A stretch of 64,000 nt of DNA from Laetmonice hystrix. Its lineage: Eukaryota. The notes below the pieces were generated by a model. That model searched no databases. It saw nothing but the letters and a program-made list of their open reading frames with translations, and was not told the DNA's origin. Location of the stretch: the NCBI GenBank assembly GCA_965235115.1, contig OZ249436.1, forward strand, positions 19,842,001 through 19,906,000, written 5' to 3'. Position numbers and translations under genes: made by a program. This document shows, one piece after another, positions 3,998-64,000 of this stretch. Every line of letters starts with the position of its first letter. Position 1 is the stretch's first letter.

Positions 3998-4259
3998 GGG
4001 CCCGGTTTTTTTGTTTACTTTTCCACCGTGAGCAAGGGTGAGCTGAGCTGAGCAAGAGTGAGCAGAAGCTCATGCTCACCGTTTTGCTCACCGTTTTCTT
4101 TTTTTGGGTGTTTTTCCGTGAGCTTGCTCACCATGAGCACGCCTCATGGAAAAAGCAACCCAAAAATACACGAAAACGATGAGAATGAGCTCATGCTCAC
4201 CCTTGCTCAGCTCAGCTCACCCTTGCTCACGGTGGAAAAGAAACAAAAAAACCGGGCCC
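3998..4259. mobile_element. MITE, nearly fully palindromic (GGGCCCGGTTTTTT... termini)
   Basis: GGGCCCGGTTTTTTTGTTT..TTTTCCACCGTGAGCAAGGGTGAGCTGAGCTGAGCAAG is mirrored by CTTGCTCAGCTCAGCTCACCCTTGCTCACGGTGGAAAAG..AAAAAACCGGGCCC. A related left end starts near 10513. Confidence 0.8.
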
Positions 4260-20052: not shown

Positions 20053-20476
<424 letters not shown>

Positions 20477-37869: not shown

Positions 37870-38820
37870 ATGAAGCCTGACCAAGAACGAGTCAAGAATC
37901 TGTTACTTGATACAGTGACATTGCTGTGTAAGAACAGTCTCCAGTTTGAAAACCAGCTCCGCGTAGAAGGTCTCCTTGGAGTTGCTGTGGATGATCAAGA
38001 TGTGTTTTTCTTACACATAAGTGAAAATTTTAAAAGCGCTGCTTATCTTGAAAAACTGGAAGCAGAGGCAGCTGCAGAAGCCGCAGCTGCAGAAGCTGCA
38101 AAAGTGTCGCAGAAAAATGAAAGTGCCAGTGACAAGGCGCGGTGTAGCCCCAGACTTTCACCTACAAGTGAGGAGGGACAAGAACAGCATGAATTGCACA
38201 ATAAACCAACAAACAGTGCTAAAGTCAAACATGAATCAAACTCTAAGCACCAGGAAGATGCTCTGACTATTAAGTCTGAAACGGTAGAATCTTTGTCAGA
38301 AGAAGAAGATGTGATGATCACAGGGTCTTCTAGTTTAAACTCGCCAGAAAATGTTGCACAGTCAGCCATGATGGTGGCTGGCAAGCGCCGAGCAGAGCGC
38401 CGACCTAGAACTAGAAGTCCATTGAAAAGCTGTAATAGTTCTATTGATCATTCTCAAACCTCAGAGATTGGGGAATCAGACTATGCCAACAATTCATATT
38501 CTCATCATGAAGATGGAGCCATGTCAAGAGGCCAAACCTTTGAACACTATAAATATGATGCAGGCGATTCATTTAAACAGGAATCAGACTGGGGGGAACC
38601 CCCTGCCAAAAGACATGCTAATTCTGGTACTACACATCCCTGGCCAAATGTGGCTGGTTTTGGGGACTTAGCAGCACAGGCTGTGCAAGCATCATTCCAG
38701 GAGTCTGAGGACAGTCAAGTATCTGGAGGTGGTGACATCTCTCAACCGGGCTGTTCCACATGGTCTAGTCAGCTGCAGGCTTCAAGCCTAGGTGCTACCA
38801 ATTCATCTGGGCAAGAAACG
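37870..38820 (+). CDS. Constant (shared) coding exon of a multi-isoform DNA-binding protein gene: ~55-aa N-terminal domain plus low-complexity linker, 317 codons
   Basis: Acceptor TTTTAAATTGCAG at 37835, ATG at 37870 (AAAATG), open for 951 nt to the donor ACG|GTGGGT (phase 0). The N-terminus MKPDQERVKNLLLDTVTLLCKNSLQFENQLRVEGLLGVAVDDQDVFFLHISE looks folded. The linker has SUMO-like KxE motifs (VKHE, IKSE, FKQE) and an NLS-like PPAKR. Confidence 0.8.
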
Positions 38821-43437: not shown

Positions 43438-43744
43438 TTAACTTAAGCCAAACTACATTTAATTTAGACCTTGATCAATGCTCATGAATTGAAACTGTTT
43501 TGAAGTGCCTTGGATGATGTTGGCAAGCATTCAAAAATAAGACGTTATTCATGCACCTGATTCAAAATGTGTGGTGGATCGAACAAAGTGGGGATTGTTC
43601 TTATATCATGAAGTCAAGTTTATTTTCTCACGTCAGTCTTTGTTGTATTTCTGAGGCTTGTGGATCATGATATATTTATTTTTATGGCTGTGTAAGTGTA
43701 TTGCACAGCAAAAAACATGTTGCATGTCAGTCAAGTGATATTAA

Positions 43745-44103
43745 AGTGACACCAAGAATTACTCAGATACTTACCTTTGAACCCTAGTGACACACCATGG
43801 TAAAATTTCAGGTTCAAGCAATAAGCGAAACTTGTTATGTTTGGGCTCCGAGTTAACTGTTTGGCCCATCTGCTATTTCGCTAAAGCCAGCACTGGCGGA
43901 GAGCTAGTGGTAATAGGTCATAGAGTAGGCCTACTGGTATGTCCAAAGATGGCAACCGAATTGGAGTGGAAGCGAGGAGAACAGCAGAGACATATTTTTC
44001 CATTCCATTTTTAAAATACCTTCGCTTATTGCTCGAACCTGAAATTTTAACAAGATGTCACTGGGGTTCAAATGTAAGTTTCGGAGAAATTCTTGGTGTC
44101 ACT
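43745..44103. mobile_element. Kolobok-like MITE (same family as 39108-41086)
   Basis: TTAA|AGTGACACCAAGAATT ... AATTCTTGGTGTCACT|TTAA. Confidence 0.8.
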
Positions 44104-44813
44104 TTAAGTGACAGAATGACAGACAGAGGATTTTAGATAGTGTTGAACACCTGTTGAGCACTGCTGAAAGCACAAACTATTGACTTGGGAATTGGGATGG
44201 TAGATTTCGTTTTTGGTATTTGCTTTCAAATATTTATCAAGAAAAATTATTACCTGCTTTAACATAGTAAGGGCAGCAGCCAACTTTGGAGAAAATAGAA
44301 TTAAGTCAAATTACCAATGATCTTAGTTGCATAGTCAGATAATGTTTTGAATGGTTTTATGAAATTGAATAATAAACAGTATGGGTACTTGCAGAGCAGT
44401 TTTGCAAAGTCAGTTAACTTTTTGGATGGTGTGGGTCCAGTTTGAGAGCTAAGACACCGACACATAGAGCTGGACTGTTACAGTCAAAATGGCTGCCTTG
44501 CTAGTGGTAGGAGCAGTCTGTTGGCAAGAGGAACCTGAACACAAAACTCCCACAGAGGACAAAACTGGACCAATAAATCGGCTCGTGCAGTCATGCATGC
44601 TGCATGCATGCTCATCTAATGGCGACAACCAGATGGGACTGTATGGGACGAGATGGCAGATATTCAGGCTGGCTATTTTGTATCAATTCATTTCTAGCAC
44701 AGTACCTGCAGGTATTTAAAAAAAGGCAAACTTTGAAATGACTGCCAGTGTAACTATCAAAGTGTGTACGAGATGCACGGCATTGACAGCTTCACTGCTT
44801 GGCCATCTTCCAG

Positions 44814-45218
44814 GGAGCAGAGGTGGCCGGTGCAGACCAGGGCATGGACACTTCCAGATCCTTTGTCCTACCCTGGACTGTGGGCAGTACTAGGGTAGGA
44901 CTACAAACCCAGCTGAACCACGCCTTATTTTCTGACAGCATTCCAGAACTTTGCTGCATGCAGTGTAAGTGCCAGTTTCCATCGGCAGCAGCTTTGTCGC
45001 AGCATGCAAAGTCTTGCCATGAAACAATCAAGCGACATCAGTGTTCCATCTGTGGACTGTCTTTCTGCATGCCCTGGGCACTACGACGGCATCAGCTAAC
45101 TCACACGGGGGAAAAGCCTTACAAATGCCCTGTTTGTGGTAGTGCCTTCTCTCAAAATGGGACTATGTATCGACACATGCGGAAACTCCATAACATGGAA
45201 CCACCCAGCAACATTTGA
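44814..45218 (+). CDS. Alternative terminal exon A: 3 C2H2 zinc fingers
   Basis: Acceptor TTGGCCATCTTCCAG| in phase 0. [31 protein letters not shown], then stop. Confidence 0.85.
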   Translation, partial: GAEVAGADQGMDTSRSFVLPWTVGSTRVGLQTQLNHALFSDSIPELCCMQCKCQFPSAAALSQHAKSCHETIKRHQCSICGLSFCMPWALRRHQLTHTGEKPYKCPVCGSAFSQNGTMYRHMRKLHNMEPPSNI

Positions 45219-46312
45219 AGATGTATAGAAATATACGTACATGTATATGAATAATTTGTTTCATTTGGAAATCTATCGGGATCATAACATACCAAGAGAA
45301 CATCTCTAGTCTACATTCCGGAGGCTTAAATTAGACAGGGCTAACACTACTCTGGAGGAACAGAGGGCCAGTTATGTCTCCTTGGGTTGCACCACTAAGA
45401 TGTGCCGTCATAGTCTGAAGCAAACCTTACTGTATACATCTGAAACAAGGAACAGAAGTAAGCTTGAACTTTGTTTATGTTATTCACTTGAGTTTGGCAG
45501 AAGGTGAAAAAACTGTTACTGGCATTGTTACAAAGACTGTTTGCTGTTTCTGATTGCACCAATTGTACATGCTAAACTATACATGTACAAGACCCAGTGT
45601 TGGCAGTGATCGAACTTGATGCAGCAAAGATTGCCAAGTAAATACATCTTATAAAAATTGTCTTGTTTTCCATCACTCTTTTAAAAACATAGAGGTAGAA
45701 AATTTACAAAAGTAGGGGAATTTAGGACTACCAGACCTGCAACAATAATTTCATTTGTGATAACTGTATACTTGTACTTTCGGATTAGCCTGATTGTTTG
45801 TAGGATATACATTCTTTATAGAAAATATTTATTCCTTATAATCACAACAGGCTGGAAGAAAAAAGGTTGCAAAATAATAAATGTAATTTGTTATTTTTGC
45901 AAATTTGAGATTTAATTGTAAAAGTTATAGTTAGCAGACCTGCACTTTCATATCGCCAATGTTTAAACATTTTTGAGCATTTGATAACTACACTCCTTTG
46001 AAGCATTTTACATTGCTCCTTATAATAAGTTCAGTTAAGAGCATTCTGTCCAGTCTGAGAAGTTTGTCAAATACATTACATAGCAATATCATGTGCCAAG
46101 TCAGTAAACGGGTTACCCCAAAAGGATGTCAATATCGCTTTTTACCGATCAAGCTAAGATGTCAAATATATATATTATTGGTGTAGAAGTAAGTACTTTT
46201 CCAGTGATTTTCCCAAAGTAGGTCTTTACGAAGCCAGCATCTGCCACATCTGCCAATCCACGGGAGAGCTGTGGAGAGGTTTTACTGATATGAGTCCTTG
46301 GTGCTGTTCCAG

Positions 46313-46765
46313 GAGGCGATGCCCTGGGTGCAGCCAGATGACCGTTGGCCGGATGCTGGCAATAATCCTACATACAGTCTCAGAGGCAGTCGCACCTCAG
46401 TCGAAATGATGCACAAAACAGGGGAGCTCTACTCTTGTAATGTGTGTAAGGCAGCCTTTGCAAAGCCAGGAACTTTAGAAAAACACATGGCTAAGCACAC
46501 CGGTGAAAAACGTTGGATCTGTTCAGTGTGCTATACTGCCTTTGCACGGAAGGACTACCTAACAAGTCACATGATGGTTCACACTGGAGAGAAACCGTAC
46601 AAGTGTCACTTGTGTCCAGCAGCATATCGACAAAAAGGCAAACTGAATAAACACATGAGTTCTGTTCACCCAGATGAAAAGATAGTGTCTCCTCTAAAGA
46701 CGATTGCTGGATCAGTTAGTGGTGAGATCATGAGCAGAAAGCTTGAGCACTCACTGGGGATTTGA
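46313..46765 (+). CDS. Alternative terminal exon B: 3 C2H2 zinc fingers
   Basis: Acceptor TTGGTGCTGTTCCAG| in phase 0. CNVC, CSVC and CHLC fingers with TGEK linkers, then stop. Confidence 0.87.
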   Translation, partial: EAMPWVQPDDRWPDAGNNPTYSLRGSRTSVEMMHKTGELYSCNVCKAAFAKPGTLEKHMAKHTGEKRWICSVCYTAFARKDYLTSHMMVHTGEKPYKCHLCPAAYRQKGKLNKHMSSVHPDEKIVSPLKTIAGSVSGEIMSRKLEHSLGI

Positions 46766-47866
46766 ACAGTTGCAGGGTTCTTGAGCTGGATTTTCAGGTG
46801 GGAAGCGTTTGGCGAGAAAAGCATTGCTGGTCATACCACCGCCCGCTATACATGTACACAAATGCCTAGCACAGGGGATAATTTACTTCAGAAGAATTGA
46901 TTCGCAGTGACTGTTACTCAGAAGGGATTTGAATAGCAATTCATTGCGAAGCATACTGTTTTTGAATTGCAAAGGGGTGAAATTGGGTCGCAAACTGCGA
47001 TGCGATACCAGGTAAATTATGCCCTGGAGCAATCATCTAAAGATAATTTATGTTACAGATAAATTCTTGACTTAGGCCTATTTCTATATTTTCTTTATTT
47101 CTCCTACTTGCAGACTTCTTTTTACGAGATTGTAGCCATATATTCCAGAACTGCCATCACACAATGCAAATGTAAATGTATTTATATTCATGTTCAGATT
47201 GTTGATAAACTACTTATTATAACTTGGGCCAAGTTCAGGCATTATGATTTGATCAATGTAAGTTTTACTACTTGTGGACAAAATGTGTAAATTTTCAGAC
47301 CACCAGCAGGTTGATTGCATTATTAGATGGAAGATAGACGTAGTTTCAGTCCAAGTGAATATGTGAAATCCGTGAATCATAGAAACCAGCACTTTGCTTC
47401 TATATTTACTGTTCATTCTGTGTCTACAGTTTAGCACTGATGCACCACCTTGTAATGTAATGGACATCTCTTACATATTGTAAAAGATGGTTGAGTTATA
47501 GGGTCGTTTTTGCAGTGAGAAAGTTGGCATCAACACAAGGATATCTAGTCAGCCACTTATGGTTAAGGACCTTAGGTCTTTTAAAATTTTTAACAGATTT
47601 TAATGTGATCGTCTTTGTAAAACAAAGATGTATCATTATCAGAACTAGTGTCCCATTATGCAAAATGCGTTGTACACAAACAATAGTGAGGTTAAATATG
47701 ACTGAAAAAATAAAGAATTAAACCCGTTAAATCTGGTGTAAATATTTAACACAGCAGGAATGTTCATCTCTAGAAGTCCTTGCATTGTGCCCTGTATCTA
47801 GCCAGATTATTTCGTCTGTGGGTTACCAACATTAGATAGTTAAGCAGTACCTTGCACATGTTGCAG

Positions 47867-48199
47867 AACATCTGGCCAGGAAGCGAGCATGAAGGAGCTG
47901 TTGGCTTGGACTCATCAAGACACAGGAGTTCAGTATCATTGCTACCCTCCAAGTTGAGCGTTGGATATATTCAGGCCCAGCCCAGTAGGCGTGATGGAAG
48001 TTCTCCTGCTCACGATGATCGCAGACATCGTTGTTCCACCTGTGGCCTAGCATTTACTATACCGTCAAAACTACTCCGCCACATGCGAACACACACTGGA
48101 GAAAAACCCTACAGGTGTATGACCTGTGGGGCAAGCTTCTCGCAGGACGGCTCACTGAACCGACACATAAAACAAAAACATGGAGTGATTATTCCATAG
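47867..48199 (+). CDS. Alternative terminal exon C: 2 C2H2 zinc fingers
   Basis: Acceptor TTGCACATGTTGCAG| in phase 0. [33 protein letters not shown]. Confidence 0.87.
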
Positions 48200-48596
48200 A
48201 AAGGCCAGTGTTCACAGACCCTCGGTTTGAAAGATAGGAAGGGGATGGGGGGGGGGGGGGAGAACCTGGAGAGCCCTGATTAGTGATGTGTTTGAAAGTT
48301 GGCCACCATGCATTATGACCTTTGAAAGAAACCAACCTAGTAGTACTGAACAGCCATAAGACAGGAGGAAGCATTGGAAATTAGAAATGCAACTGATAAC
48401 AGAACTTGGTACTTGGTAATCTTTGCTATGCCATTTACTTGATAACCGCCTTTTGGTAGGTGTTTGCATATTTGTTTATTTCATCCAGGCCGATGAAAAA
48501 AATTAGTTTCATATCTTTGTGAATGGTCTAAAAACGAATCAAGAGACCAGAGCGAAAATACCTGAGTCTTATGAGGCCTGCCTTGGCGTGTTGCAG

Positions 48597-48917
48597 AGAT
48601 TGTGGCCACGGAGTTGGTATGGGAAGACTTCACAGCATTCGCCACCAACAGCTCGGGATTCCGACCCCAGCAATAGTTGGGGGACACCTCAGTCAAATAG
48701 AAGACTGTGTGGTACAGTGACAAAAGATCACGATCAACGACCCTGCTGTACGCTCTGTGGCCTCCTGTTTCCCTGTCGGTCGAAACTAGTGCGTCATATG
48801 CGAATCCACACAGGTGAAAAGCCGTACACCTGCAGCATATGTGGTGCAAGTTTCTCACAGAATGCCACGCTAAGAAGACATATGAAAGGAACACACAAAC
48901 TGATTGATCAGGAGTAA
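48597..48917 (+). CDS. Alternative terminal exon D: 2 C2H2 zinc fingers
   Basis: Acceptor CTTGGCGTGTTGCAG| in phase 0. [33 protein letters not shown]. Confidence 0.87.
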
Positions 48918-50351
48918 TGCATGTATCTACGATGCTGGTGACAAGATAACTGGTACCGGTATTCAGTTTATACTACATGTGTATAAGGGCAAACATCCAT
49001 CACGGCGAAGAATTTAAACAAACAGTGATAGAATGATAGAGGAATTACATTTTGTAGTAAATTGCTTTTATCCATCACCTTGTTAGCTTGGGATTATATG
49101 CTAATCAAATTCCAGTCTGGGAACGTAAAAGTTGAAATATTACAAAAGTGGGTATTTTTGGACAGCACTATCCCTGATACTCTTATAAAAAAATAGTTTT
49201 TATTTATGTTAAACTGTGGTCTTGTTAGCTGCACAGTGATTTGTGTGCAGACCTTGCCAGCACGGTAATATTTCACACCTGGAGCAATTATCTGGAGGAT
49301 GTGTCGCATTATAGTCGTACTATTTTCATCCACTAAATGACAGAAGATTAATCGGTGCGATTTGATGGAAAAGACAGTTTATTATTCATATAATTGAATT
49401 CATTCAAGATTTTAACATATTTTATCATCTATTTACATCACGAAAAGTCTATATAAAAGGATATTTCTGCTCAGCCAATTTAGACTTTCATCGATGGAAG
49501 AAAAGTTTCATACCATATGAGAAGTACATGTACTGGTACTTCAGTACATCATAGTTATTGCATACATTGAGGAGTATTGCCCATGTATAATAAGACGGTT
49601 ATTCATTTGTTGTCCAGATTAATACAGAACAGTAGCAAGTCCTCAAGTTTAAAACCATCAGACATTACTAATATCTCTTGAGTGACATTAGAAATAGTGC
49701 AGATTGCATATGCCACAATGGTTTTCATTCTAATGATTGTTGACTATTGCCCGACTGTTATGACGGTACAAGAATTTTAGCCCTTGCTTCTCGTGATATT
49801 ATAAATATTCTCAGATCTGAGATCAGGTCATCGTCCGTGACCTCCCAAACCAAACTGGTGGTGCCTCTTTTGAGCACTTTTGAAACTATTATACCTGTAG
49901 GCAAGACAAGGCCACGTTATGTAGGCTGAAGTGTAGTTTGAAGAGTTTGGAACCTCTACTCTGAAATGTCAGGTAGATCCTAATGCGGTCCAATGATAAT
50001 GTTCAAAGTTTTATGAATTCCTTAGCTATACATCACATTTTTAACGTGTGTTCTGAAAACACCAGTTTTTAACGTCTTACCCAGAATATTTCTAATATTG
50101 GAGCAGAGATCATCTCGGTATAAATTGTTCAATAGGAGCTGTGGTCCCGTCGGCAGGCTACAATTCCAATGTGAAATATGGCCAGACTTTTTAACGGATT
50201 AACTTTTTGCATTTACGAGGAAAATGGTTCAGACAGTCATTAGAGCAAAGCTCAAGGTGTAAAATGTTCAGAATAAACTTGCCGTTATTGAGCCACCGTG
50301 TACCTCTACCTTCGACCATGGTCTGCATGTATGTTGTGTACGGTTTTGCAG

Positions 50352-50678
50352 AGAACCCTGGAACTGCCAAATCTGGAAGTGTACAGAAGCAACAGTGGCT
50401 CTCCGCTTCATGTCTACTCTGGAGGTCTTGGAGAGTCGGAAAGAAACTGCAGTTCAGTGGTTCAAGACGAAGTTGATAACTCACTGGAATCAATTCGAGG
50501 CCAGCAAGCCTTCCGCTGCTCCTACTGTGGACGCACATTTAGATTGACAGGAGATTTGAGGAGACATTTGATGACACATACAGGAGAGAAACCCCATCGT
50601 TGCAGTGTCTGTGGGCATCACTTCGCCAGATTAGACAGCTGTAGACGGCACATGAAATTACACAACAAAGTGTCTTAA
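50352..50678 (+). CDS. Alternative terminal exon E: 2 C2H2 zinc fingers
   Basis: Acceptor TGTACGGTTTTGCAG| in phase 0. CSYC..DLRRHLMTH-TGEKPH-CSVC..RLDSCRRH. Confidence 0.87.
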   Translation, partial: RTLELPNLEVYRSNSGSPLHVYSGGLGESERNCSSVVQDEVDNSLESIRGQQAFRCSYCGRTFRLTGDLRRHLMTHTGEKPHRCSVCGHHFARLDSCRRHMKLHNKVS

Positions 50679-50822
50679 TATCTGATCAAGATCTTTCCGC
50701 TGGTGTAAGGGACTGATGCTCATTTCTTTTCAAACAAAAAATAGTCATCTAGTGTTAATGATCTTATGTCAGTACAGAACAAAAAAGTATTTCAACATAC
50801 TCTCTGCTTGGACATTTTGCAG

Positions 50823-51122
50823 AGACGAAGAGATTACCAATTCATAGGACACGTGGGCAGTGGAGGTTCAGTTCATCTGGAAAGAAGGCCAAAGCATATC
50901 GAGGAACTTAACAGTGTAATGCCACAGCAGGCTGAAGCGGGTGGACGTTACATGAATCTACACAGCTGTTTTTACTGTGGGAGACAGTTCAGACTGAGTA
51001 GCGATTTGAAACGTCACATGCGATCACATACAGGGGTAAAACCTCACACCTGCGATGAGTGTGGCATAAGTTTTTCAAGACTTGACAATTTTAAAAGGCA
51101 TCTCAAACGGCACTCGAAATGA
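50823..51122 (+). CDS. Alternative terminal exon F: 2 C2H2 zinc fingers
   Basis: Acceptor TTGGACATTTTGCAG| in phase 0. CFYC..DLKRHMRSH-TGVKPH-CDEC..RLDNFKRH. Confidence 0.87.
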   Translation, partial: RRRDYQFIGHVGSGGSVHLERRPKHIEELNSVMPQQAEAGGRYMNLHSCFYCGRQFRLSSDLKRHMRSHTGVKPHTCDECGISFSRLDNFKRHLKRHSK

Positions 51123-52004
51123 GAAGTGCAGTTAGTCATGACAGGCAAGTTCAAAAGTATCTGGTCAAGTGAACTGAACTGGGAAATGCACAAAACTGGA
51201 AAATTGAACTTTTTCCACTACCACCACTGAAAGACATTTCAATTTGTGATTTTTACCCCTACAGTAAGATCAATAACGACGACACCAAGAATGCCAACCC
51301 ATAAAGGCATGAAGGACAAATTTGTTCAGGATATATACAAATGTATATATACATGTATTCTCCCATGTCAAAAGTAATGATGGATTACACCAAACGGGAT
51401 TAAAGATTTTAAACAGAATGTGATGGCCGTTTGGTTCTTATTGAGTCAAACTTTTCAAACGGTTGAAATGTCCCTACCCTAATTTTTGTGTCAGAAAATT
51501 CAGCTGAGAGTTTCCCCAAATAAATACCCAAGGGTAGTGAATACGACTGTGGGAAAACCTTTGTGACTCCAATTTTAGAGACCAACGTCGTACACTGCCA
51601 TACAAGGCCAATGACTTGACTCTCCCCCCCCCCCCAAAAAAAAACAAATATCTACCCAGAAATACACTGGTCAGATGTAAAGGCCGATACAGGTAGACCA
51701 TGAAAATTGATAAACAGATAGGTGACATCAGGTGGCCAACACAGTGTTTTGTTTAAGAAGTATGCAAAGAAATGGATGTCAGATGATTTTTACATACCAG
51801 TACTCTTGGTGATAGAAGGTGCATTCACTCGGTACACTTTAGTTTCTTTAATATAATACTTTTTCAAAGGAGGGTTCAGGCTATTCATTGCTGTAATTTA
51901 CATCAGATCTTGGCATTCTCTGTCTGATGCTAGAACGCTCAGGATTATAGCACTACTAGGTAGGAAAGTCTGAAATGCTCATCCTCTACTTGCACATTTT
52001 GCAG

Positions 52005-52310
52005 ACTGGATGGAATTGCAAGAACCAGCGACAGTTCGTCAGTGGATACTCTGCTCAGTATGCTGTCATTGTGCAACAGGGAGTGTATCCTTCGATGCCA
52101 AAATCTGATGGATTTGGCGAAGCCAGAATACTTGGGAAGTGGACTAATCAATCCTGTGACTACTGTGGACGTCAGTGCAGGGGCGGTTGGGACATGCGCC
52201 GTCACATGTTGACACACACAGGGATTAAACCACACATCTGTAAACACTGTGGCAGTGCATTTTCTCGACTCGACAACTATAAGAGACACATGAAGCAGCA
52301 TGAAAACTGA
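52005..52310 (+). CDS. Alternative terminal exon G: 2 C2H2 zinc fingers
   Basis: Acceptor TTGCACATTTTGCAG| in phase 0. CDYC..DMRRHMLTH-TGIKPH-CKHC..RLDNYKRH. Confidence 0.87.
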   Translation, partial: TGWNCKNQRQFVSGYSAQYAVIVQQGVYPSMPKSDGFGEARILGKWTNQSCDYCGRQCRGGWDMRRHMLTHTGIKPHICKHCGSAFSRLDNYKRHMKQHEN

Positions 52311-52567
52311 AGACTTCAATCTCACTTTTATGTCATCAAATGGGTGGGTGTGATTGCCAACCTTTTGAGGTGCCGATTCTTAATGGTAGATTCGAAAAGA
52401 AATTCAGTAGGTGACTGTTGGGTCCTTTAGTGAGCTTAGTTGAACAGTGAAAGGGAGCTTTCCGCAGGATATCAGTGACTAGGTGCATTTGTTATCTTTG
52501 TCCCAACAAATAAATACCAGTCCCAAGGAGTTCTTGGTTATAAGTATTTCTCTTCAACTCCTTCCAG

Positions 52568-52945
52568 GCTAGTGACGTGCAGTTTGGCCAGAATTATTCT
52601 CCGCCCTTCCTTCATGATGTTGGAATACGGAAACATTCAAGAGCACGTCACGGAGACCAGTATGACCAGACTTACTTCTGTCATCTTTGTGGCAAAGGGT
52701 TTGGAACACGTGGCTCGCTTCGGCAACATGAGAAGTTTCACCAAGAGAAGCAACATAGATGCGACATTTGTGGCTCCTCATTTACCATGGCGGCCGACCT
52801 CCGCCGACATGTCCGTATCCACACAGGGGAGAAACCCTACGTATGTCAGACGTGTGGCGCCGCCTTCTCCCGAGCAGATAGGTACAGGACACACATCACC
52901 TGCATCCATCATGACACTGAGGAGACAGTCGCAGTTCAAACATAG
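52568..52945 (+). CDS. Alternative terminal exon H: 3 C2H2 zinc fingers
   Basis: Acceptor TTCAACTCCTTCCAG| in phase 0. CHLC, CDIC and CQTC fingers with a TGEKPY linker. Confidence 0.87.
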   Translation, partial: ASDVQFGQNYSPPFLHDVGIRKHSRARHGDQYDQTYFCHLCGKGFGTRGSLRQHEKFHQEKQHRCDICGSSFTMAADLRRHVRIHTGEKPYVCQTCGAAFSRADRYRTHITCIHHDTEETVAVQT

Positions 52946-53723
52946 CACATTCATGGAAAACGCTGTTAAAACAAAAACTGATAGTGTGGAGAATTACAAA
53001 GGTCTTTCTTCCCTCAAATTGAAACTCAATTCCTTTCTCACCAGAAGAAACCCCTATATTTGGTAATGTTTCTGAGGCATGTCGCCAGTAAAACAGAACT
53101 TGTGATGGTTGAGATATAGGAGACTAATCAGATGTGATAACTTTTTCATCCATATGCGACAACAGAATTATTGACCTCTCGGGGATAGGTAGACTTGGAG
53201 CTAATTTCAGCTCTACCCGGAGACTTTAGGAAAATAGGTGTGGTGTAAGCAGAATACGTAATAGGCCGATGCTGAAAACCAAGCCTGTGTTGGCTCTCCA
53301 CTAGGTGCCGTAGATAATACTATAGGAACCCTGCCTGTGTCAGTAATATCAAACCTGTTTGTACTTGAGAAATGTTAGATCACAAGAATTGCCTTACTGT
53401 GCCAAAGGATAGACCTGGGAAGGTGTCATCGTACCAATGTGGACTGCGATCTTATACAATTATGAGAAAGAATCTTTGTCTGAATAGGTTTCTTTTTCAA
53501 CAGTGACTATCACATAGATCACTTTTTATGTACGTTTGCACCCAATATAATACATACTGGGGGTTCCGTTGTTTCCATTTATGAGGTACTTCTTAGAACA
53601 GGTAGCATTTGGAACGTGATGCGTCTGTGTATATTGTATGGAACCAGTTGACACCAATTTCAAGCTGCAATAAATCTACAAATAGATAAAATTATGCATT
53701 ACTATTTGTTGACCATTTTCCAG

Positions 53724-54167
53724 ACGGTGGAAAAGGAGGACATCCCAGCAGATGGCAGGCACCGGGAGGCTGTTTGGATAAGTACTGGTGCCATAGAAGA
53801 CAAGTCTCTGGACCCTATTGGATCTTCACCTCAATTATCCCATCAGTATGGCAATGTTTCGATGATGCCTTATCGTTCTCCTGACAGCCCTCCAAATTAC
53901 CATGATTCCCAGAGTAAGCCACACCAGTCACGCAGTCATACGTGTGATGTGTGTTCCAAGGGCTTTAAGAGAATCAGCCACCTGCAGCGTCACAAACTAA
54001 CCCACACTGGAGAAAAACCGCACAAGTGCTCGGTGTGTGAGGTCCGCTTCGCTCGCACCGATAAACTGAAAAATCACATGACTACGCACCATCCCTTAGT
54101 TATGTCTTCACCCTCACGAGTCTACCGTCGTGACTACCTTTCGGAAATGAAGGATTTTAATGCTTAA
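53724..54167 (+). CDS. Alternative terminal exon I: 2 C2H2 zinc fingers
   Basis: Acceptor TTGACCATTTTCCAG| in phase 0. CDVC..RISHLQRH-TGEKPH-CSVC..RTDKLKNH. Confidence 0.87.
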   Translation, partial: TVEKEDIPADGRHREAVWISTGAIEDKSLDPIGSSPQLSHQYGNVSMMPYRSPDSPPNYHDSQSKPHQSRSHTCDVCSKGFKRISHLQRHKLTHTGEKPHKCSVCEVRFARTDKLKNHMTTHHPLVMSSPSRVYRRDYLSEMKDFNA

Positions 54168-55429
54168 ACGTGTGTCAGTTGGACACACAAGTGTACCTTG
54201 AACCTTGTCATGATTCGGTAGATTTTTTCATTTAGTGAGCAGTAGTGAACGATTGTGACAGTTGTCGCAATCTTTTAATTAGAACTAGAGTTTTTTTAGG
54301 ACAATATTATATGTTTGGAAAAGTCGCCAATTTACGTAGCTAGTGGGAGTCATTTGTTGACAGTATGTACGACCTAGAAAAAACTACCCAGATGAACACG
54401 TATGTACACGTCTTGGTACGATTGTTCATTGAAAACTGCATTGTAAAACAGCTTTTGATACATACACGCATATCTATTCTTCGCCAGTTGAGAATAAGGG
54501 TTGCTGGTTCCATGATGCCCTTTGTTTGTTTTGAAGAACTACATCTGAGAGAAGTTTCTGTTGGTTGTGTAAACACTACCGGCATTCTGTCAAGGTGACC
54601 TTCATTGAGATACACATGTATTACAGATGTGAATCTCTACGAAGAAGGAAGAAGAGAACCCACGTTTTAACCATTACGGATTGATATATTTCCCGGGAAG
54701 GCAATACAGAAAACTGGAGAGAATGCCCACCGATTCAGTGACAAACCATTGAGCAGTCCGCGACATTCTAAACTTGCACTGTTCTGAAATCTTAATCTTG
54801 ACTTTCCCATTGGTGAACATTTGAGACATCGTACTTACACATACCAGCCATCATTTCAGTCCAACCAGTATCAAGGGTACGTATAGGATTTAGTACCGTG
54901 TGTTTGATCTCTAAAAGTTTCCAAAAAATTAATATTAGGGACATGGTAGAGGGGGGCCGATTCTTGTCAAACAAGTTGGTCGTGTGATAGTTGGAATATC
55001 AACTATACTTTATTGATCCAAATTGGTTTTAGGACAATTACTAGAATGTCTGGAGATTTTGCTCGGACACTTTGACTCTTGTATCACAACACTCCTGGTA
55101 CATGTACATAGAATATCCTCATTACGTTAGCAATCCCTGCCACTTATTGAATAATGGGAAGGTGTACACGGTGTTAACATTCTGACGGTCATTTTCCCAC
55201 CATGGAAAGTTGGCCACTCTTCTGTCTGTTGCATGATGCCGAGCCAAACCTTCACAGAACAGACTTCTTTAGGAAATATTCTTAGAAAATTAAGGTGAGC
55301 CTTGCATGAATAAAATAAGGAAGAGGCACAGCTCATCGCTTGGCAGTGGAATGGCTTGAGGAGTGTTGCTGACCGTAAGTGTGGGAATTTTAACCTTTCA
55401 CAGAATGCCAATGTCTGCTGTGTTTGCAG

Positions 55430-55816
55430 AGGGTGATCAGTCGCCTACCATTGCACTCCTCCCGGTGGAGCACAAGCACCCCATACGTGATAGCGCCCGG
55501 CATGGCCCAGTCCGCTCAACAGTCTCCGGCAGCAAATACAACAGAGACGCCACTAAAATGTTTTGTCTGCCATGCCAAATTTGAGCTTCGCAGTGACTTA
55601 CGGACCCACATGAGGAGCCATTCGACAGCCCCAACCTATAGGTGCCCGTTCTGTCAATTGACATTCCTACGAGTAAACGATATGCAACAGCATGTCGCCT
55701 TGCATTCCGTGGAAAGGCCTTTCAAATGTGGGGGATGTAACGCTACTTACACAAGCACTGAACATTTGCAGAGGCACCAGGCAATGAACTGTCGGGTATT
55801 TCGGCAGAACCCATGA
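55430..55816 (+). CDS. Alternative terminal exon J: 2 C2H2 fingers plus 1 C2HC finger
   Basis: Acceptor CTGCTGTGTTTGCAG| in phase 0. CFVC..HMRSH, CPFC..HVALH-SVERPF-CGGC..HQAMNC. Confidence 0.83.
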   Translation, partial: RVISRLPLHSSRWSTSTPYVIAPGMAQSAQQSPAANTTETPLKCFVCHAKFELRSDLRTHMRSHSTAPTYRCPFCQLTFLRVNDMQQHVALHSVERPFKCGGCNATYTSTEHLQRHQAMNCRVFRQNP

Positions 55817-55900
55817 ATCATAAATAAGTATTTGGTTTGATACTAGGCCTAAGCAATTCCTTTGTAATCAATGATTGGAACCCAACAGGCAATATTTTTA

Positions 55901-56235
55901 GGGCATCAATAAACAGCGAACTGAACCAACTGCGCAAACTTAGATCGATTAGTCGTGCTACAAGCCTGTGACTTCAGGTATGACGTCACGGCCAGAAGTT
56001 AGTGCCTATTTTACAAAAATTTTGGGACTAAACTAACACTAACCCTAGGCCTATCCTTTACCCTAACCCAAACAAGCTGTTTCATGTCGGAATTAGTCAT
56101 AATTTAGGTCGGCTGTTTCCGTGTTGGTGTCAATAGCCAGTCCCTATCGGGAATCCCCCCCCCCCCAGGCGTAACTAATCGATCTGAGTTTGCTCAGTTC
56201 ATTCAGTTTGCCCAGTTCGCTGTTTATTGATGCCC
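55901..56235. mobile_element. MITE with 9-bp TSD (Mutator/MULE-like)
   Basis: TIRs GGGCATCAATAAACAGCGAACTG / CAGTTCGCTGTTTATTGATGCCC flanked by ATATTTTTA on both sides. Confidence 0.88.
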
Positions 56236-57287
56236 ATATTTTTACTAGTGACCAAAGAAAGATTCTGTAAACTAGGACATTTTCAGGGGCGTGTGGAACA
56301 GAAAGTTCGCAAATTCACCACCACAATGTGAAAATGGAAATGTCAAATTTTAGAATTATATGTATTTTAACATTTGGGGGATTATAATGAGAAGTCCGAT
56401 TGAGAAATTCACGAAAATTCCACGGTTTAGCTTTTAGCACCAGTTGTATATATTATGCCGTGGTTCACTGTTGCTATGAAACATAATTGCATGATGATAC
56501 ACCTAATTTATAAGACACAATCCTATGGAGAAATGGAAGAAATGCAGCCATTTGATTGACATATCCATTGTATATAAAGTTATTTTACACTGAACGTAGA
56601 TCTCAGCACAATTATTCTTGATGTGGTAACTTTGTGTACTGACATTACGGACAAAACTATTTCCTGATAGACATGCCTCTGTGCTATTAGTGTTTTACAT
56701 GATTACACATACGTATACCTGGTGACCATAAATAAAGATTATTCCTACATTTGTGACTGGTAGTACTCGTTATCTCAGCAGGTTTATGCCATCATCAACT
56801 GATACATTATGTTGCCCGCTTTACCCCGTTCATGAGTGTTCACACTTTGTTCACACACAAAGGTCGGTTCACACTTTGTTTACACAAAAAGGTCGATGAA
56901 CAATGACATGTAGGGAAAGTTACCGGGATTGGACCCCTTAAGGGAAAATACCGATGTAGGTTACAAAAAAAAGAGTTACCATCTAATAAGTCAGCACTTT
57001 GGTATTGTTGGGGCATGCAATATGTTTTGGTTCAACGCACTTTGCTACAAGTTTAATTGTTCAAGAGCAAACGGAATTTGTTTTTTAATGTCGATCTGGT
57101 CCAATCGTAGAACCAGCATCCGCGAATGGACCATATGTCACCATATATACATAGTTGGACAAATGAAGATATTATGTGAGGGATAGTCCACGCCCACGAA
57201 TGGGTCCATGCAGGTTATACGCCGAGGGCGATGCACGAGGCGTATAACCTGCATGGAGACATGAGGGGTGGCCATGGACTATCTCAC

Positions 57288-57497
57288 TTAAGCCCGGGAT
57301 ACACGAGGAGATTTTTCGCATGCGACAGTGTCGCATGCGACGAATCTTATCATGTAGACACCCTTGCGCCACCTTGCAACATGGTGCATGCGATTTTTTT
57401 TCTGTCGCATGGGATTGTTGCGTGCAGCAATCCTTGCGACAATTCGCATGCGTCAGAATCGCATGCACCTGGAATCGTACCGTCTAGCCGACCTTGC
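57288..57497. repeat. Degenerate MITE-like element rich in TCGCATGCGA palindromes
   Basis: Repeated GCATGCG/CGCATG motifs in both orientations. The termini are only weakly inverted. Confidence 0.4.
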
Positions 57498-58363
57498 ATC
57501 AACATCGCAAGTGACGACCTTGATGACCTAGGCCTACAGGTCTGGACACGTGGACGTCAACAAAAGTATTGCTGCTTTTTTCCTTCGCCTTGTAGTAGTC
57601 CGTGCCATGGTGTAACTTGTGAAAAGGGGTAACTTCGCTCGTGTAACTGCCACATGACATCCCACTCTACAAATAAATGCATGGCGAAGGCAAGTATATA
57701 TGGCGTCACTGAAAATAATGAATTATTCATTATCACATGAGGTGATCAATATAAATGACTAGAAATATTTGTAAATTTGCCATAGGGTGGCGCTTCCCGT
57801 CTCTTGTACTTTGTTCATTCGGAACACCTCAGCCCAAGTTTTGGTCGCTTCGCTAGTTGTGGTTTCGGACCTCGCAAGCTGTAGATATATGACAGAGATT
57901 CCACGGGTTTGGGCACATCACAACTCGCATAGTGCGCAAAGTAGTTCATAGATCGTCGGCATTTGGCCTGACGCAGGATTATTCATGGGGAAAGATGGAT
58001 AATTTCCAAAGATTTGTAGTCTCGATCGTTCTTAGCAGCCGCGACACATTCAGTTTTGCAGTATTTATGAAATCATACGACTTTACTAGCTTGCATCAAC
58101 ATAAGAAAGATGTCATATGCCCGAAGGAATCCCGAGGGAATCCCGAGGGAATCCCGAGTGAGACAGCGCATCCGTGGGACGAACGTTGACCTCTGTCTGA
58201 CGATAAACAATGCCAATAGGAATGTCACCATCTAAAAAGTATCTATAGAGACCTGAATAGATTTTCTTTGACGTTTAATCCACTTGTCAGAGGTATCAAG
58301 CAGAGATCTGCTTTTAAACAAGCCAGACACTGCTTGTCTTTCACCTTTGTCAGTGTGTCGGCC

Positions 58364-58473
58364 GTCGCCATTTTGACCACGTTGTGTCACGTGATAAAAG
58401 AAGATCCAACATGGTGACGACCTTGCGAGGGCCGAGAGGATCTGGCCCGGACAGTCCCGAGGTTGGCCGAATG
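58364..58473 (+). promoter_or_regulatory. Candidate internal CpG-rich promoter with a short ATG-containing exon
   Basis: CGCCATTTT (YY1-like, 58366), TCACGTGA E-box (58387), CAACATGG start context (ATG 58411), then 21 open codons ending at ATG|GTACTT (phase 0). Confidence 0.35.
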
Positions 58474-58527
58474 GTACTTTGTTGTGAAAGGTGTCAGCGG
58501 TACTAGGCTAATAAAGCCATGCTCACG

Positions 58528-58851
58528 GGGCATCAATAAACAGCGAACTGAGCGAACTGAGATCGTCTAGTTATGCCTCGGGGGATTCCCCATAGAGACT
58601 GGCTATTGACACCAACACGGAAACAGCCGACCTAAATTAGTTTGACTAATTCCTACACGAAACAGTGTGTTTGGGTTAGGGTAAATGTTAGGCCTAGGGT
58701 TAGTGTTAGTTTAATCCCAAAATTGTTGTTAAAATAGGCAATAACTTTCTGCCGTGACGTCATACCTGAAGTCACTGGCTTGTTGCATGACTAATCGATC
58801 TCAGTTCGCTCAGTTTCTTCTGTTCGCTCAGTTTGCTGTTTATTGATGCCC
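58528..58851. mobile_element. Second copy of the MULE-like MITE, inverted relative to 55901-56235
   Basis: Same TIRs, 9-bp TSD ATGCTCACG on both sides. The internal sequence is the reverse complement of the first copy. Confidence 0.88.
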
Positions 58852-60805
58852 ATGCTCACGTGCCACGGTTGTAGGGTAAAGCCAGGAATCCATTGTGTAC
58901 CAGGCCCGTAGGCTGGTCTGAAAATGGGTGGGTTACTTATCAGGGGCGGACCCAGGATTTTCAAAACGGGGGGGGGGGGGGGGGGGGGCTATGGATAAAG
59001 GGCATATTAACAGGGCCGTAGTTAGTAATGTCTGAGTGTGGGGGCAGTCAGGGGCAAATCCAGAAATTTGGTAAAGGGGATGTCCCCCATGGGTGCCAGC
59101 GCCGAAGGCGCGAAGCCATGAAGGCAGGGGCCTAGCTAGGGGCCCTTCCCCAGAAAAAAAATTAAATTACAGTGCCAAATACGCGATATAGACCAGCCTT
59201 TAGGGCTATAATAGGCCTAGACAATTGGACATTTAGATTTTAAATATCTTTCGTAAAATAAAAAAGGGCACTTGAGGGGGAGAGAAAAGGGCACATGGGG
59301 CGAGAGGGGGTGCACTGCTTAGGCCTATAGTGAAATGAGTTCCATAAATTTGCATGGGGTGGATTCAGAGCTGTTTCTTGACCATGCACTGATATTGAAA
59401 CTTGTTTCCAATAGGCCTACCAGTGGTTCCAACGTTTAAGAATGTGAAATGCACCAGCAAAGCCACTGTAGGGAGCACCATAGGCACGAAGCGTTTGTAC
59501 TAGGTGGTACGGGGGCATGCTCCCCCGGCAGGATTTTTTTTAAAACTAGGAGTGAAATGATGCATTCTGGGGGCATTTTGGCCATGTTTCAGAAATCTGA
59601 GAGCAAAATTTTACTGAGGCACAGTATACAAGGAATCTCTTTAGATTTTTAGATTGGGAAGTAACCCCCCCCCCCCCCCCCCCCAGTGGTTCTCGCCTCT
59701 TCTGAGATACCAGTGGCAGTGCAGTTCGGCCCCTGGTCAGGTCATATTGAATATTTGCGTGCTAGGGGGGTCTGAATCTGGGGTCCGGTACATGTTCCCC
59801 CAGAAAAAAATGAAAAATTGGAGGCCTAACAACCATACATCTGTGGTTTTTTTCAATTGGTGGGGCATAGGCCTATTTGTGCCCCCTCCTCCAACTGAAA
59901 AATCGGTCCCGCGCCCCAGCATGGGCAGACCTTTTTACCTTGACTATATAGGCGGACCTTGGCTGCCTCTGCGGGTAGGTTACGAGTAACCCAAGTAACC
60001 CCCCCAGCCTACGGGCCTGTGTACGTAGTGTGGGCGGAGTGCATAATGTGTTTTCATTGTTTTGATTACGCAATACGCACTACGGACACTGTTGATTCTT
60101 CTTGGATCCGTAACAAACCACAAGAGCTTGTCTGTTGAGGTTCCTATAGAGTATGTTTTATTCAGGGGTCTCTCGCCATACACACTAAGCACTTCATCTT
60201 TCAGTTGGATCTGTGCGATAAATCTGTCCTCATGTACCGTTATCAGACCGAACTGACAGTGTCAGTGATGTCAGAAGCAATTTTTTGAGGCCCCCAAGAG
60301 CATTTTAGGCTGTGTGCGTGGCAGCGGTAAAATAGAACACATTAGGCCCACTGAGATATGAATCGGCACGTGGGACCGGGGGGGGGGGGGGGCAAAACAT
60401 AGACTGGCATAGTCTGGGGGCATGGACCCTGTGGGGGGGGGGCGGGGGTGGCAAAACATAGTCCAGGGGGCATGGACCCTGCTGCCCCCCTTCTGCCATC
60501 ACTGACTGGTGCAATATAGTGTTTATCCCCATGTTGATAGTGGGAAAGCCTAAATAGGAACTAGGCCCCTATGCCTAGTTATTTTGCTTTGTGCTGTAAT
60601 CTCAACGAGTACAGACTCTAAATTTCAGTTGTGTAAAAGGAATGCCCGACTAATCTAGGCACAAATAACCAATGTTTAAAATAACACCATGACAGAAGGG
60701 CGACCATGGGAATGTTCACTCGTATTCAAGTGGAATGATTAAAGAAATGAATAGTTGGCAATTGATTTTTAACGGGCCGTCTTTCTGCTTGTGAAGGTCT
60801 ACCAG

Positions 60806-61198
60806 GAGGGCGGTTGGAGACCTGAAGGAGACGTAGGCCTAATCAACAAATTCAGAACAGTAGATGCTGAACGTAGTAACCAGTGGCGGCATCGCTGTCG
60901 TAGAAGGAGGACCAATCAACAAGGACGAGAGATTCGACAGATTGGTTTGGCCGAAAGACAAGAAATAATTCAGCGCATTGTGGAGGCTGGCGGTGATACG
61001 GTCACGGGAAAGGCGCCCCTAGGCACCCTGACACGGGTCGCCGAATTATATCACATCGGCAAGTCTACCGTGTTCAATATGTGGAAGTCTTATTGGAAGT
61101 TTCAGTCTTTAGAACATGACCCCCGAGTCTTACAGCGACTGAGCGATGGGCAAAACTGTACAAGGTCTGGTGAACCAGCCGGGACCGGAAATGTGTAA
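60806..61198 (+). CDS. Alternative terminal exon K: helix-turn-helix domain (paired/Tc1-type transposase DNA-binding-like)
   Basis: Acceptor GTGAAGGTCTACCAG| in phase 0. RRRTNQQGREIRQIGLAERQEIIQRIVEAGGD...TLTRVAELYHIGKSTVFNMWKSYW has an HTH pattern. Stop at 61198; no DDE domain follows. Confidence 0.62.
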   Translation, partial: EGGWRPEGDVGLINKFRTVDAERSNQWRHRCRRRRTNQQGREIRQIGLAERQEIIQRIVEAGGDTVTGKAPLGTLTRVAELYHIGKSTVFNMWKSYWKFQSLEHDPRVLQRLSDGQNCTRSGEPAGTGNV

Positions 61199-61571
61199 TG
61201 AGCTCACTGCCCTAGCGCGGCTTTAGCCTTGGCCTAGGCGGCTAAAATAACGGTCACTGCTTCTACCTCATCCATCTACTCTTGGTGCATGCTCGCTTCA
61301 AACTAATAGTTTGCACACGTCTACTTCATGTTCCATGGGGAAGTAATTATATTCAGAAAACTTTGTATGACTGTCAGGTCTACGGTGCATTTATTGAAAG
61401 TAGGCCTCTTCATATCCTGCTTATGGTAGACTTCTATTGTCGGTAGCCTACTGCAGAGCGTCATGTTCCTCATTTTAGTATTGCTGTATACTCTAGTCTA
61501 TATAGAGCCATGGTGCAGACAAGGATCAAAGACTTGTTTAATGACAAAAAGCTGTATTGCCAATGTTGCAG

Positions 61572-61889
61572 GCAAGAGGCAATTGGATGGAACCCACACA
61601 TCCCCAGATTAAAGTGGACTCCAGAGGGATGCAGAAATCACAAGTCTTGTTCAGCACGCATCAGGACCAAAGTATAAATTGTTCTGAGAGTCTGCAACAC
61701 CGAGTCATGAAAACGTTTGCCTGCCAAACGTGCGGCGCCACATTCGCAAACAAGAGTAACCTTCGGCGACACCTTCGGACTCACACGGGCGAGAAACCCT
61801 ATGTCTGTAGTGCCTGTGGTACAGCTTTCTCCCAGTCCAATAATCTCAAGGCTCATATACGGCGCGGGCACACCCAACTACCCAGTTAA
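61572..61889 (+). CDS. Alternative terminal exon L: 2 C2H2 zinc fingers
   Basis: Acceptor TTGCCAATGTTGCAG| in phase 0. CQTC..NKSNLRRH-TGEKPY-CSAC..SQSNNLKAH, with AATAAA at 61930. Confidence 0.87.
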   Translation, partial: ARGNWMEPTHPQIKVDSRGMQKSQVLFSTHQDQSINCSESLQHRVMKTFACQTCGATFANKSNLRRHLRTHTGEKPYVCSACGTAFSQSNNLKAHIRRGHTQLPS

Positions 61890-64000
61890 AACGGGTTTTC
61901 ACAACAAACCTTTGACAGGCCTCTGATGGAATAAATTTGCCTCAACACTTGCAACATAATGAGGCAGTGCCATGACAACAAAGAGCAGTTGGAGAAGCAG
62001 AATAATGCAGTTCATATCTACTAAGCAATTAGTGGTTGGATTTTGATGATAATCTCCATTGTCAAGATGTATCTGCAAAGCTTCAGCAAACAGTCTAAAA
62101 ATGTATCAAAACGTGTGTTTTTTAGCCCCCAACCCAAAGGAGTGGGGGCTTCTGATTCACCCTCCGTCTTGACGTCCGTTTCTCAGAAGTGTATTGGGTT
62201 TTTTTATATAGTTCAAAATGGTCACTCAACAGCTGTCTTGGATGTAAACTCATTTCGAGCAGTAACTTAGACAAAAGATTCCGATTTCTTTCAGATTTGG
62301 TGCAGAGAAGAAGCACATGAGGGGCAATTTATAACCTACTCAGCAGAAAAACCCACAAAGTTACATGACATGACATGACAGACATTTGACATGAAATTTC
62401 AAGGGGAGGACCCCCTCCCCCCGCATGCACGCCTCGAGCCCTCGGCGCTGGCAGTACGGTCACATGATTTCCAGTTCCCCCCCCCCATTTTTTTGAGCTT
62501 CCGACATCCCTGAAATGGTGGACATAAAAGATACTAGCTACTGAAATTCGGACTCCTGACCCCGACTGTGTTTCATCATTGACTCAATAATCACCAATAA
62601 TGCTCAGTATTCTGAGCAAACTTTGCAAACATATTGGCCAATGCATATACTGAAAGATTGATTTCATTATGTGTCCCAAAGGGCAATTAAAATGTTCACT
62701 TTCTTACTTTGTGCGTTTATATTTTTGTTCAGTATATATGGTAATGTATGCTTAGTTCAGAGCAAATAATTATGGCAACATGGCAGCCATATTTCTTTTT
62801 TGACCCTCGAAATAACACTGTTTTGGCTCATATCTTGAAAATAATGTAAGATAACACAATAGTTACTATTATTGACAGACATGGGTGTGTGGTAACTCTT
62901 TGGGTTAAGAGGTGCAGAGGGGTTGATTTGCCCGAAATTTCTCCGTCCGATTTGTTTTCTTTTTGCTCTGCCTAAATTTTCACCACTGTTTTGCCTGAAT
63001 TTAGGGGGGAGGGGCCCCCCGCCTCGTACGCCTATGTTGACAGATAGGAAGTCATATATTAAGTCCGTTTGAGGCCATTTTCCAAGACCTTTACAGGTCA
63101 ATCCAAGGTCATGAATATTTTCAATGGCCTGTAACAGTTCATGATAATGACATTAAGGGACAATCTAAGAACCAGGCAGGTCAAACATATTTTTTATATC
63201 ATTCAAAATGGCCCCTTGGTGGCCATCTTGGATATAAACACATTTGGAGTAACAAAATTGTCTGAATTTCTTTCAAACTTGGTGACAAAGGAAGGCATAT
63301 GAAAGGCAGCAAGCGTGCATTTTTTTGCGTTAGTGTTCAAGACAAACGAAGGTGAGCAAGTCATATTATAAAGTTTCATTTGTCAGTATTTCCCTTTACA
63401 TTGAGTGACCTTGTGAGGTCAATCAAGGTCAGAGACATTTTCGACAATTCATATCTAGAAAACACTTCAAGGTAACCACTTACTACAAATGGTGGATGAA
63501 AACATATATGAAGTTTCTTTGTGACTTATGTATCAAAGATGTTCTCACATTGTCTGTATCTCAAAATTGATTTCTGGACCCACAGATAATTAGGCCTAGT
63601 GCCTACCCAGTTGGAGACTGTGACTACGACGTTTGCTTGTTTTATCATCTTTCTCGTGATATTTATTAGGCTAAATAGTTAACTGTCCTCACCGCACTTT
63701 GAAAAGGTAGCTGATTATTTGAGTAAACTTAAAAATACATTGTACGTAACTTCGAAAATAAAACACTTACCTGTCACCTATAGTAACCTATTGACATGTG
63801 AAGACACACTGTTCCTACAGTACTGCAGTATGATGATATTTGTTAACTAGGATTTGGGCCGAAGCTATTAACAGATAACAGCAGGAGTTTGAATTTGCCT
63901 CGGGGCGCTGCAACTGACGTCCCATAATAGTCCCAAGTCCTGGGGAATCCCATGCTAACTTCTGGTATAGCTCCACCATATTTGATCATCATCATAGGCT

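Follow-up and report, generated by a model that had tools for sequence, protein, structure and literature searches.

The closest described counterparts of the locus analysed here are the insect genes mod(mdg4) and lola: at least 30 isoforms of mod(mdg4) have been reported, and among the 20 isoforms of lola, 17 terminate with C2H2 fingers that differ from one isoform to the next (PMC11426971). Members of the BTB-C2H2 family have repeatedly joined up with transposase-derived domains that bind DNA (PMC1702500), and in tetrapods fusions of transposases with host genes have arisen by insertion, splicing and then selection (10.1101/2020.05.07.082677). We analysed 64,000 nucleotides of the genome of Laetmonice hystrix (assembly GCA_965235115.1, contig OZ249436.1, positions 19,842,001 to 19,906,000 of the forward strand; hereafter the window), which are part of a 73.8-Mb contig in a 627-Mb assembly. 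The window contains a gene with the layout of lola and mod(mdg4), that is, one constant 5′ exon followed by same-phase alternative terminal exons. Eleven of these terminal cassettes (A to J and L) encode C2H2 zinc fingers (ZF), and one, cassette K, encodes a helix-turn-helix (HTH) which appears to derive from a transposase of the DD37E type.

Results

A first-pass annotation, made from the letters of the window alone, had described K as an open frame with a phase-0 acceptor and a stop, situated between cassettes J and L. Computation of the frame and of the phases of the AG dinucleotides bears this out, the quoted pieces of the peptide are present, and the flanking ZF frames have their acceptors at 55430 (J) and 61572 (L). 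Of 20,000 mononucleotide shuffles of K (130 codons), 16 gave an equally open frame; the full open stretch around K comprises 141 codons. Joined to the constant exon, K would give a predicted isoform of 447 amino acids, or of 450 if the exon starts at 60797. The AGs before the two candidate starts, 60797 and 60806, are both in phase 0 of the K frame; they score 7.2 and 6.2 with a matrix built from the 11 ZF acceptors, whose leave-one-out scores range from 5.5 to 23.1, and rank 10 and 13 among 1,554 background AGs. The acceptors of K are plausible but weak.

The AlphaFold model of K has helices at residues 48–60, 74–82 and 86–99, with a predicted local distance difference test score of 83–97 over residues 41–100, and supports a fold as three-helix HTH; a Foldseek search with this model returned nothing at E ≤0.001. 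An arginine run precedes the HTH, and the N-terminal arm retains basic residues. The 5′ part of K also contains an imperfect direct repeat (60822–60849 / 60895–60922, 28 nt, 75%, spacing 73), the second copy of which overlaps the start of the arm.

The earlier suggestion that this HTH is transposase-like is upheld by BLASTP comparisons with two full-length DDE_3 transposases carrying the triad DD37E, namely P0018 from Argopecten (E 2e-10, 33% identity over 76 amino acids, P0018 residues 4–79) and P0017 from Pinctada (FSP39_011539; E 9e-10, 31% over 86 amino acids, P0017 residues 4–89). Against four transposase N-termini K reached E values of 1e-9 to 1e-13, with 32–39% identity in the core. The best E value against the three Pax domains of the host genome was 0.87, and K has no match to the PAX family of Pfam (PF00292) at E up to 1. 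An insert of 11 residues between helices 1 and 2 is common to K and the transposases and is not found in Pax; the transposases themselves match Pax with E 3e-6. In a tree rooted on Pax, which samples eight stand-alone HTHs (five of them without genomic context) and only four transposases, the stand-alone HTHs form one branch (support 92/90) nested among the transposases. All eight carry the motif W-x-x-(Y/F/H/R)-W after the recognition helix, with the second tryptophan four residues past the conserved one, and none of the four transposase N-termini does. These sequence comparisons support a transposase origin of the HTH of K, for which one old capture followed by duplication would be the simplest account.

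A second HTH is not present in K, as the alignment stops at K residue 115, corresponding to P0017 residue 89, and the stop codon follows 15 codons on. Pfam detects no DDE_3 domain in K, no DDE frame lies near it, and P0018 matches nothing in its vicinity. The first-pass annotation had likewise seen neither a catalytic domain nor terminal inverted repeats (TIRs) around K, and we found no TIR pair hugging K and no TA duplication with TIRs, though old TIRs could have decayed. Apart from homopolymers, the sole inverted pair around K (23 nt, 87%, 59094–59116 / 62431–62453) lies 1.7 kb upstream and 1.2 kb downstream, encloses L as well, and has its left arm in a high-copy repeat.

The annotation had named the status of a multi-copy decayed transposon fragment as one of the findings that would speak against domestication. 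The genome gives a different picture: in a search with K, which scores best candidates only so that copy counts are lower bounds, four of five candidates matched, namely K, a local duplicate and two further exons, H1 and H2, all of them in two arrays. The local copy (140 nt, 83% identical, 5.5 kb downstream) contains stops and adjoins a duplicate of L. H1 and H2 are located 11.8 Mb from K, have open frames of 164 and 142 codons and CAG acceptors of phase 0, and directly follow a paralogous constant exon (donor CAG/GTGAGA, phase 0) as cassettes one and two, with two ZF cassettes after them. Two intact paralogous exons at the same position in a second array, together with apparent orthologues elsewhere, support the status of a domesticated cassette. 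In K, and likewise in H1 and H2, a transposase domain is found in a host gene, on the same strand and in frame, as in a host-transposase fusion. The cores of K, H1 and H2 are 32–44% identical, and their recognition helices differ.

Genome searches with P0004, P0002 and P0007 gave the same three exons as best matches. The P0007 search also gave three weak, stop-containing matches; of these, L032 was inspected and proved to be a decayed Tc1-like element of the ordinary kind, which lacks the insert. With the full transposase P0018, exon H1 alone was recovered (one of five candidates) and no catalytic body was detected. In the sequencing runs that behave as DNA (X1–X3), the contig depth over the bin of K is 48–62, like that of the ZF cassettes, and reaches 10^3–10^5 over nearby repeats; this depth is a crude measure and not a copy number. 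The end of the array shows recent local duplications (L015:2492-2709, 4305-4443, 4509-5261, 3730-4269 and 6396-6980), comprising the decayed partial K, one frameshifted copy of L together with an L remnant, and two almost identical ZF cassettes, which represent the birth and death of cassettes.

In another assembly, P0006 is 79% identical to H1 and P0005 is 68% identical to H2 in the core, with unrelated flanks. They are apparent orthologues of H1 and H2, and they probably lie on one contig; the longest contig listed is 573,335 nt for either protein. P0002 is the best match of K among 1.84 billion representatives, and K is the best match of P0002 in the host genome. As a side observation, P0003, P0004, P0010 and P0011 from other genomes form a class of stand-alone HTHs with a conserved C-terminal extension, for which no separate locus was matched in the host genome. 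Several searches were negative. A word-indexed protein search with K gave 11 candidates, none of which scored, and a search of longer proteins with alignment A1 gave none among 8,000 candidates; that no annotated fusion of the constant part with the HTH was seen in these protein searches is weak evidence. Searches of PDB sequences with K and with alignments A1, A3 and A4 gave matches at chance level only. A genome scan with PF24964 had no match, controls included, and is uninformative. The ESM Atlas matches of K (0.88, DUF7769 clusters) are below the reliable range and are leads only. A metagenome scan with P0007 gave no loci, and three metagenome loci from P0008 were dropped, since L038, which was read, turned out to be a phage-like stretch of bacterial DNA matched by chance.

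The constant exon encodes a domain of about 55 residues followed by a low-complexity linker, and its own acceptor is probably situated at 37835/37836 in the 5′ untranslated region. A Pfam search with the N-terminal domain gave no family and no BTB, and a search of PDB sequences with a profile of 23 rows gave a best match with E 0.83; its ESM Atlas match (0.75, Annelida) is below the reliable range and a lead only. A complex prediction for two copies of the domain, run without alignment, scored 0.01, which is no answer and not evidence. The family defined by this domain, without a Pfam or PDB match, comprises at least 36 loci in the genome, 30 of them on C1, often arranged as divergent or convergent pairs. 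Cassette contents were inspected in four genes, the window gene and those at C1:19.95, 31.68 and 31.69 Mb, and the layout is identical at the three paralogues. All cassettes seen share the strand of their constant exon, so that cis-splicing would suffice. Within the window, every ZF cassette (11 in total) has an acceptor ending in TT(G/C)CAG, and past the window edge four further ZF frames follow, three with acceptors. Polyadenylation hexamers within 700 nt after the stop were found for six of the 12 cassettes only and are uninformative.

The annotation had also proposed that the array can recruit any DNA-binding module. Modules other than ZFs have indeed been taken in, and "any DNA-binding module" is wider than the evidence. 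A cassette of about 220 residues without a Pfam match has 56 matches in the genome, each of which lies no more than 51 kb beyond one of 10 constant exons, downstream of it and in its orientation. Seventeen of these exons are arrayed at C1:19918549-19938108(-) behind the constant exon C1:19946376(-), most of them with clean phase-0 acceptors. The predicted fold of this cassette is confident and weakly HUH-Rep-like; no HUH motif was seen in the alignment. A third type of non-ZF cassette, of about 170 amino acids and without a Pfam match, occurs in two arrays (L018:7170-7691(-) and L024:8473-9051(+), 35% identical). Downstream of the constant exon C1:31691610, a phase-0 cassette-like exon (L025:3183-3815(+)) encodes a long basic charged helix and is possibly a basic-region DNA-binding module.

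Hints on splicing come from sequencing runs examined over positions 42100–62050, a stretch that excludes the donor at 38820. The type of run X4 is not on record. In a selection of its 105 records, three of the eight pieces listed start at predicted ZF acceptors (46312, 50823 and 52567), and in two of these three the start is preceded by 28 letters without a placement, the pattern expected of an upstream exon shared between cassettes. This hints that the array is spliced as modelled and says nothing on K, for which no junction was seen over this stretch. X4 has zero depth over the bin of K with 28 of 30 bins covered; contigs drop rare forms, and this is evidence neither way.

Table 1. Features of the constant exon, the cassette array and cassette K (window positions)
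Feature	Position	Strand	Remarks
Constant coding exon	37870..38820	+	317 codons from ATG 37870 to phase-0 donor ACG/GTGGGT (38820/38821)
Ten C2H2 terminal cassettes A–J	44814..55816	+	2–3 fingers each, own stop each
Phase-0 acceptors of A–J	44814, 46313, 47867, 48597, 50352, 50823, 52005, 52568, 53724, 55430	+	
Cassette K	60806..61198	+	130 codons and TAA stop
Acceptor region of K	60776..60805	+	pyrimidine tract, then two AGs; candidate exon starts 60797 and 60806
Transposase-derived part of K (residues 35–115)	60908..61150	+	N-terminal arm through linker
Helix 1 of K	60947–60985	+	
Family-specific GG..TG..P.G insert of K	60986–61024	+	between helices 1 and 2
Helix 2 of K	61025–61051	+	
Recognition helix 3 of K	61061–61102	+	followed by linker to expected start of second HTH
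C2H2 terminal cassette L	61572..61889	+	two fingers, phase-0 acceptor

Upstream of the constant exon, the window holds an intronless open reading frame at 1170–2609(-), which by its motifs we take to be sugar-transporter-like, exons at 13661–18900(+), presumably of an HCN-like channel, and exons at 23004–24888(-), which we likewise assume from motifs to belong to a ligand-gated ion-channel-like gene. A long AG dinucleotide tract lies near 19970–20500. Within 55901–58853, two elements of about 330 nt with 43-nt inverted ends stand in opposite orientation about 2.3 kb apart and surround other high-copy repeats and palindromes. Elsewhere in the genome, a decayed frame between two tail-to-tail arrays (L016:2471-3568(-)) presumably stems, by its motifs, from a PIF/Harbinger-like nuclease. 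Beside a Pax exon, about 20 tandem repeats of about 180 nt (C30:1559723-1562921(-)) match positions 22–65 of the PAX profile and are a tandemly repeated piece of the paired domain.

Discussion

The existence of K as a real, transposase-derived cassette is confirmed, and its domestication is better supported than the first-pass annotation could know; its expression and its target are predictions from sequence. Beyond frame, phase, fold, homology, paralogous context and conservation in other genomes, which we could establish, we consider it fairly probable that the K isoform is made and reads host DNA sites, which would entail splicing to K, DNA binding and targets in the host genome. We suggest that a DD37E-type element of the IS630/Tc1/mariner superfamily inserted long ago into the array of alternative ends and that its first 75–80 codons or so, encoding the arm and the first HTH, came within splicing reach of the phase-0 donor. 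Loss of the element ends and of the catalytic part would have followed, and the captured exon would have been duplicated within and between arrays, yielding K as well as H1 and H2 in the paralogue, with divergence of the recognition helix. Choice of the terminal acceptor would join the constant exon to one of its ends, K being one such alternative last exon. In the resulting isoform, a disordered linker would connect the front domain to one lone HTH and its basic arm, and this protein may take the front domain to other host DNA sites than the ZF ends do.

Some observations weigh against this proposal. The acceptors of K lack the TT(G/C)CAG ending of the ZF cassettes, K and P0002 are only 38–40% identical and are joined by a long branch, and the approximately unbiased (AU) test does not reject a grouping of the stand-alone HTHs with Pax (p 0.152).

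The exon class could also be domesticated while K itself is dying or silent and no longer spliced in. Acceptors that deviate from the consensus and score near the bottom of the ZF range would fit with this, as would the turnover visible just downstream in the decayed partial K duplicate and the frameshifted L copy. On the contrary, the frame of K has stayed open over its full length despite a core identity of only 32–39% to the transposases, the acceptors are in the top 1% of the background AGs and in the right phase, and the conserved positions of the HTH are intact. We judge that a dying K is rather unlikely.

According to the first-pass annotation, K might direct the constant domain to transposon ends. 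In the manner of KRAB-transposase fusions, the K isoform would then bind the terminal repeats of its parent transposon and silence or mark them. KRABINER and other fusions do repress via their cognate TIRs (10.1101/2020.05.07.082677), and small elements with inverted repeats abound in the genome, each of them a potential non-autonomous relic. A PAIRED domain has six helices (PMC10379824), however, and K has kept just the first three. The search with full-length P0018, which scored best candidates and does not prove absence, found no cognate body, and the recognition helix is not the same in K, H1 and H2, which are only 32–44% alike. With half of the bipartite domain missing, a parent element not found in this search and recognition helices that have diverged, the targeting of transposon ends is not supported, and we regard it as improbable.

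K could further be used as a protein-contact module, or in a non-DNA-binding, dominant-negative isoform. The DNA-binding domains of Tc1 transposases and paired proteins are bipartite, and one half of such a pair may on its own have low affinity for DNA, which counts in favour of such a role. The F-box A2 proteins offer a precedent (PMC12062965). Against it, K occupies the slot of a C2H2 cassette, has kept the basic arm and has an arginine run in front, and we give this role the same small chance as the binding of transposon ends.

That K is a piece of a transposon which happens to lie in an array intron, as its transposase homology and the many repeats of the region might suggest, is largely refuted and very improbable: each of the three intact copies found is part of an array, follows the strand of the gene and is open and in phase 0, none is accompanied by catalytic sequence, the core is conserved in other genomes, and the depth over the bin of K is like that of the ZF cassettes. 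An origin from a duplicated Pax paired-domain exon, to which the NQQG start of K and the AU result could point, is hardly credible given the lack of a PAX match, E values of 0.87 or worse against Pax compared with 1e-9 to 1e-13 against transposases, and the insert shared with transposases only.

Returning to the domesticated cassette, we put forward tentatively, and as a doubtful extension, that the 36 or more BTB-less genes may form an adaptor library, in which one front domain is combined with hundreds of ends stocked from mobile elements, including the DD37E HTH and at least 56 possibly dead HUH-Rep cassettes. Such a library would parallel lola and mod(mdg4) by convergence and on a much larger scale, possibly recognising mobile DNA, and K, H1 and H2 would then in effect be a second, independent "paired-like" transcription-factor domain.

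Like mod(mdg4) and lola of Drosophila, the window gene has one constant N-terminal exon and exchangeable C-terminal exons. Unlike these genes it has no BTB domain, and at least 36 genes share its front domain; the TTK type of BTB is reported to be specific to arthropods and absent from annelids and molluscs (PMC11426971). The gene is lola-like in its working and not a member of that family. The insect TTK-BTB factors have acquired the transposase-type domains FLYWCH, Psq HTH and BED, whereas K is a paired-like DD37E HTH among C2H2 cassettes. With the tetrapod fusions KRABINER, SETMAR and PGBD3-CSB the locus shares a transposase DNA-binding domain that is, presumably in the case of K, spliced to a host regulatory domain. 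In contrast to them, it is found in an invertebrate, retains the first HTH only, has no cognate element that we found, is one of a dozen or more ends, and belongs to a class expanded as cassettes across paralogous arrays.

Among the invertebrate systems, the F-box A2 genes of Caenorhabditis are also a multigene family that captured the HTH of Tc1/mariner alone; unlike K they are a fixed fusion with an F-box host domain, and their reported role is not transcriptional (PMC12062965). Factors derived from transposable elements have been catalogued in Capitella and molluscs, and the parts of that report available to us mention neither paired domains nor isoforms (PMC10027918). A description of this gene family or of the HTH exon was not found in the literature searched, mostly outside subscription journals and supplements. 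Transposase capture and swappable DNA-binding ends are known separately, and insects join both on BTB domains; in the present gene the two come together on a front domain without relation to BTB and in a different lineage of animals. Where an array keeps a phase-0 donor ready, domestication would have a low-cost route, because existing ends need not be given up when a new one is tried.

K corresponds to the bivalve DD37E transposases P0017 and P0018 in its arm, helix 1, GG..TG..P.G insert, helices 2 and 3 and linker, and differs from them in lacking the second HTH, the DDE domain and the TIRs; its donor can be placed at the level of DD37E and not at that of a family (L31, L18, Mosquito or TRT). 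The PAI subdomain of the Pax paired domain is distantly homologous, although K is not detectably closer to it than chance and has the extra insert. On sequence grounds K thus appears to be a capture independent of Pax from the same superfamily. A transposase origin has been proposed for the paired domain itself in published work. Bivalves still have recognisable transposases of the donor family, and there are several diverged copies of the captured exon, so that this locus makes it possible to trace and test what has been proposed for how Pax arose, namely that a Tc1-like HTH was captured, the element disappeared and new targets were acquired.
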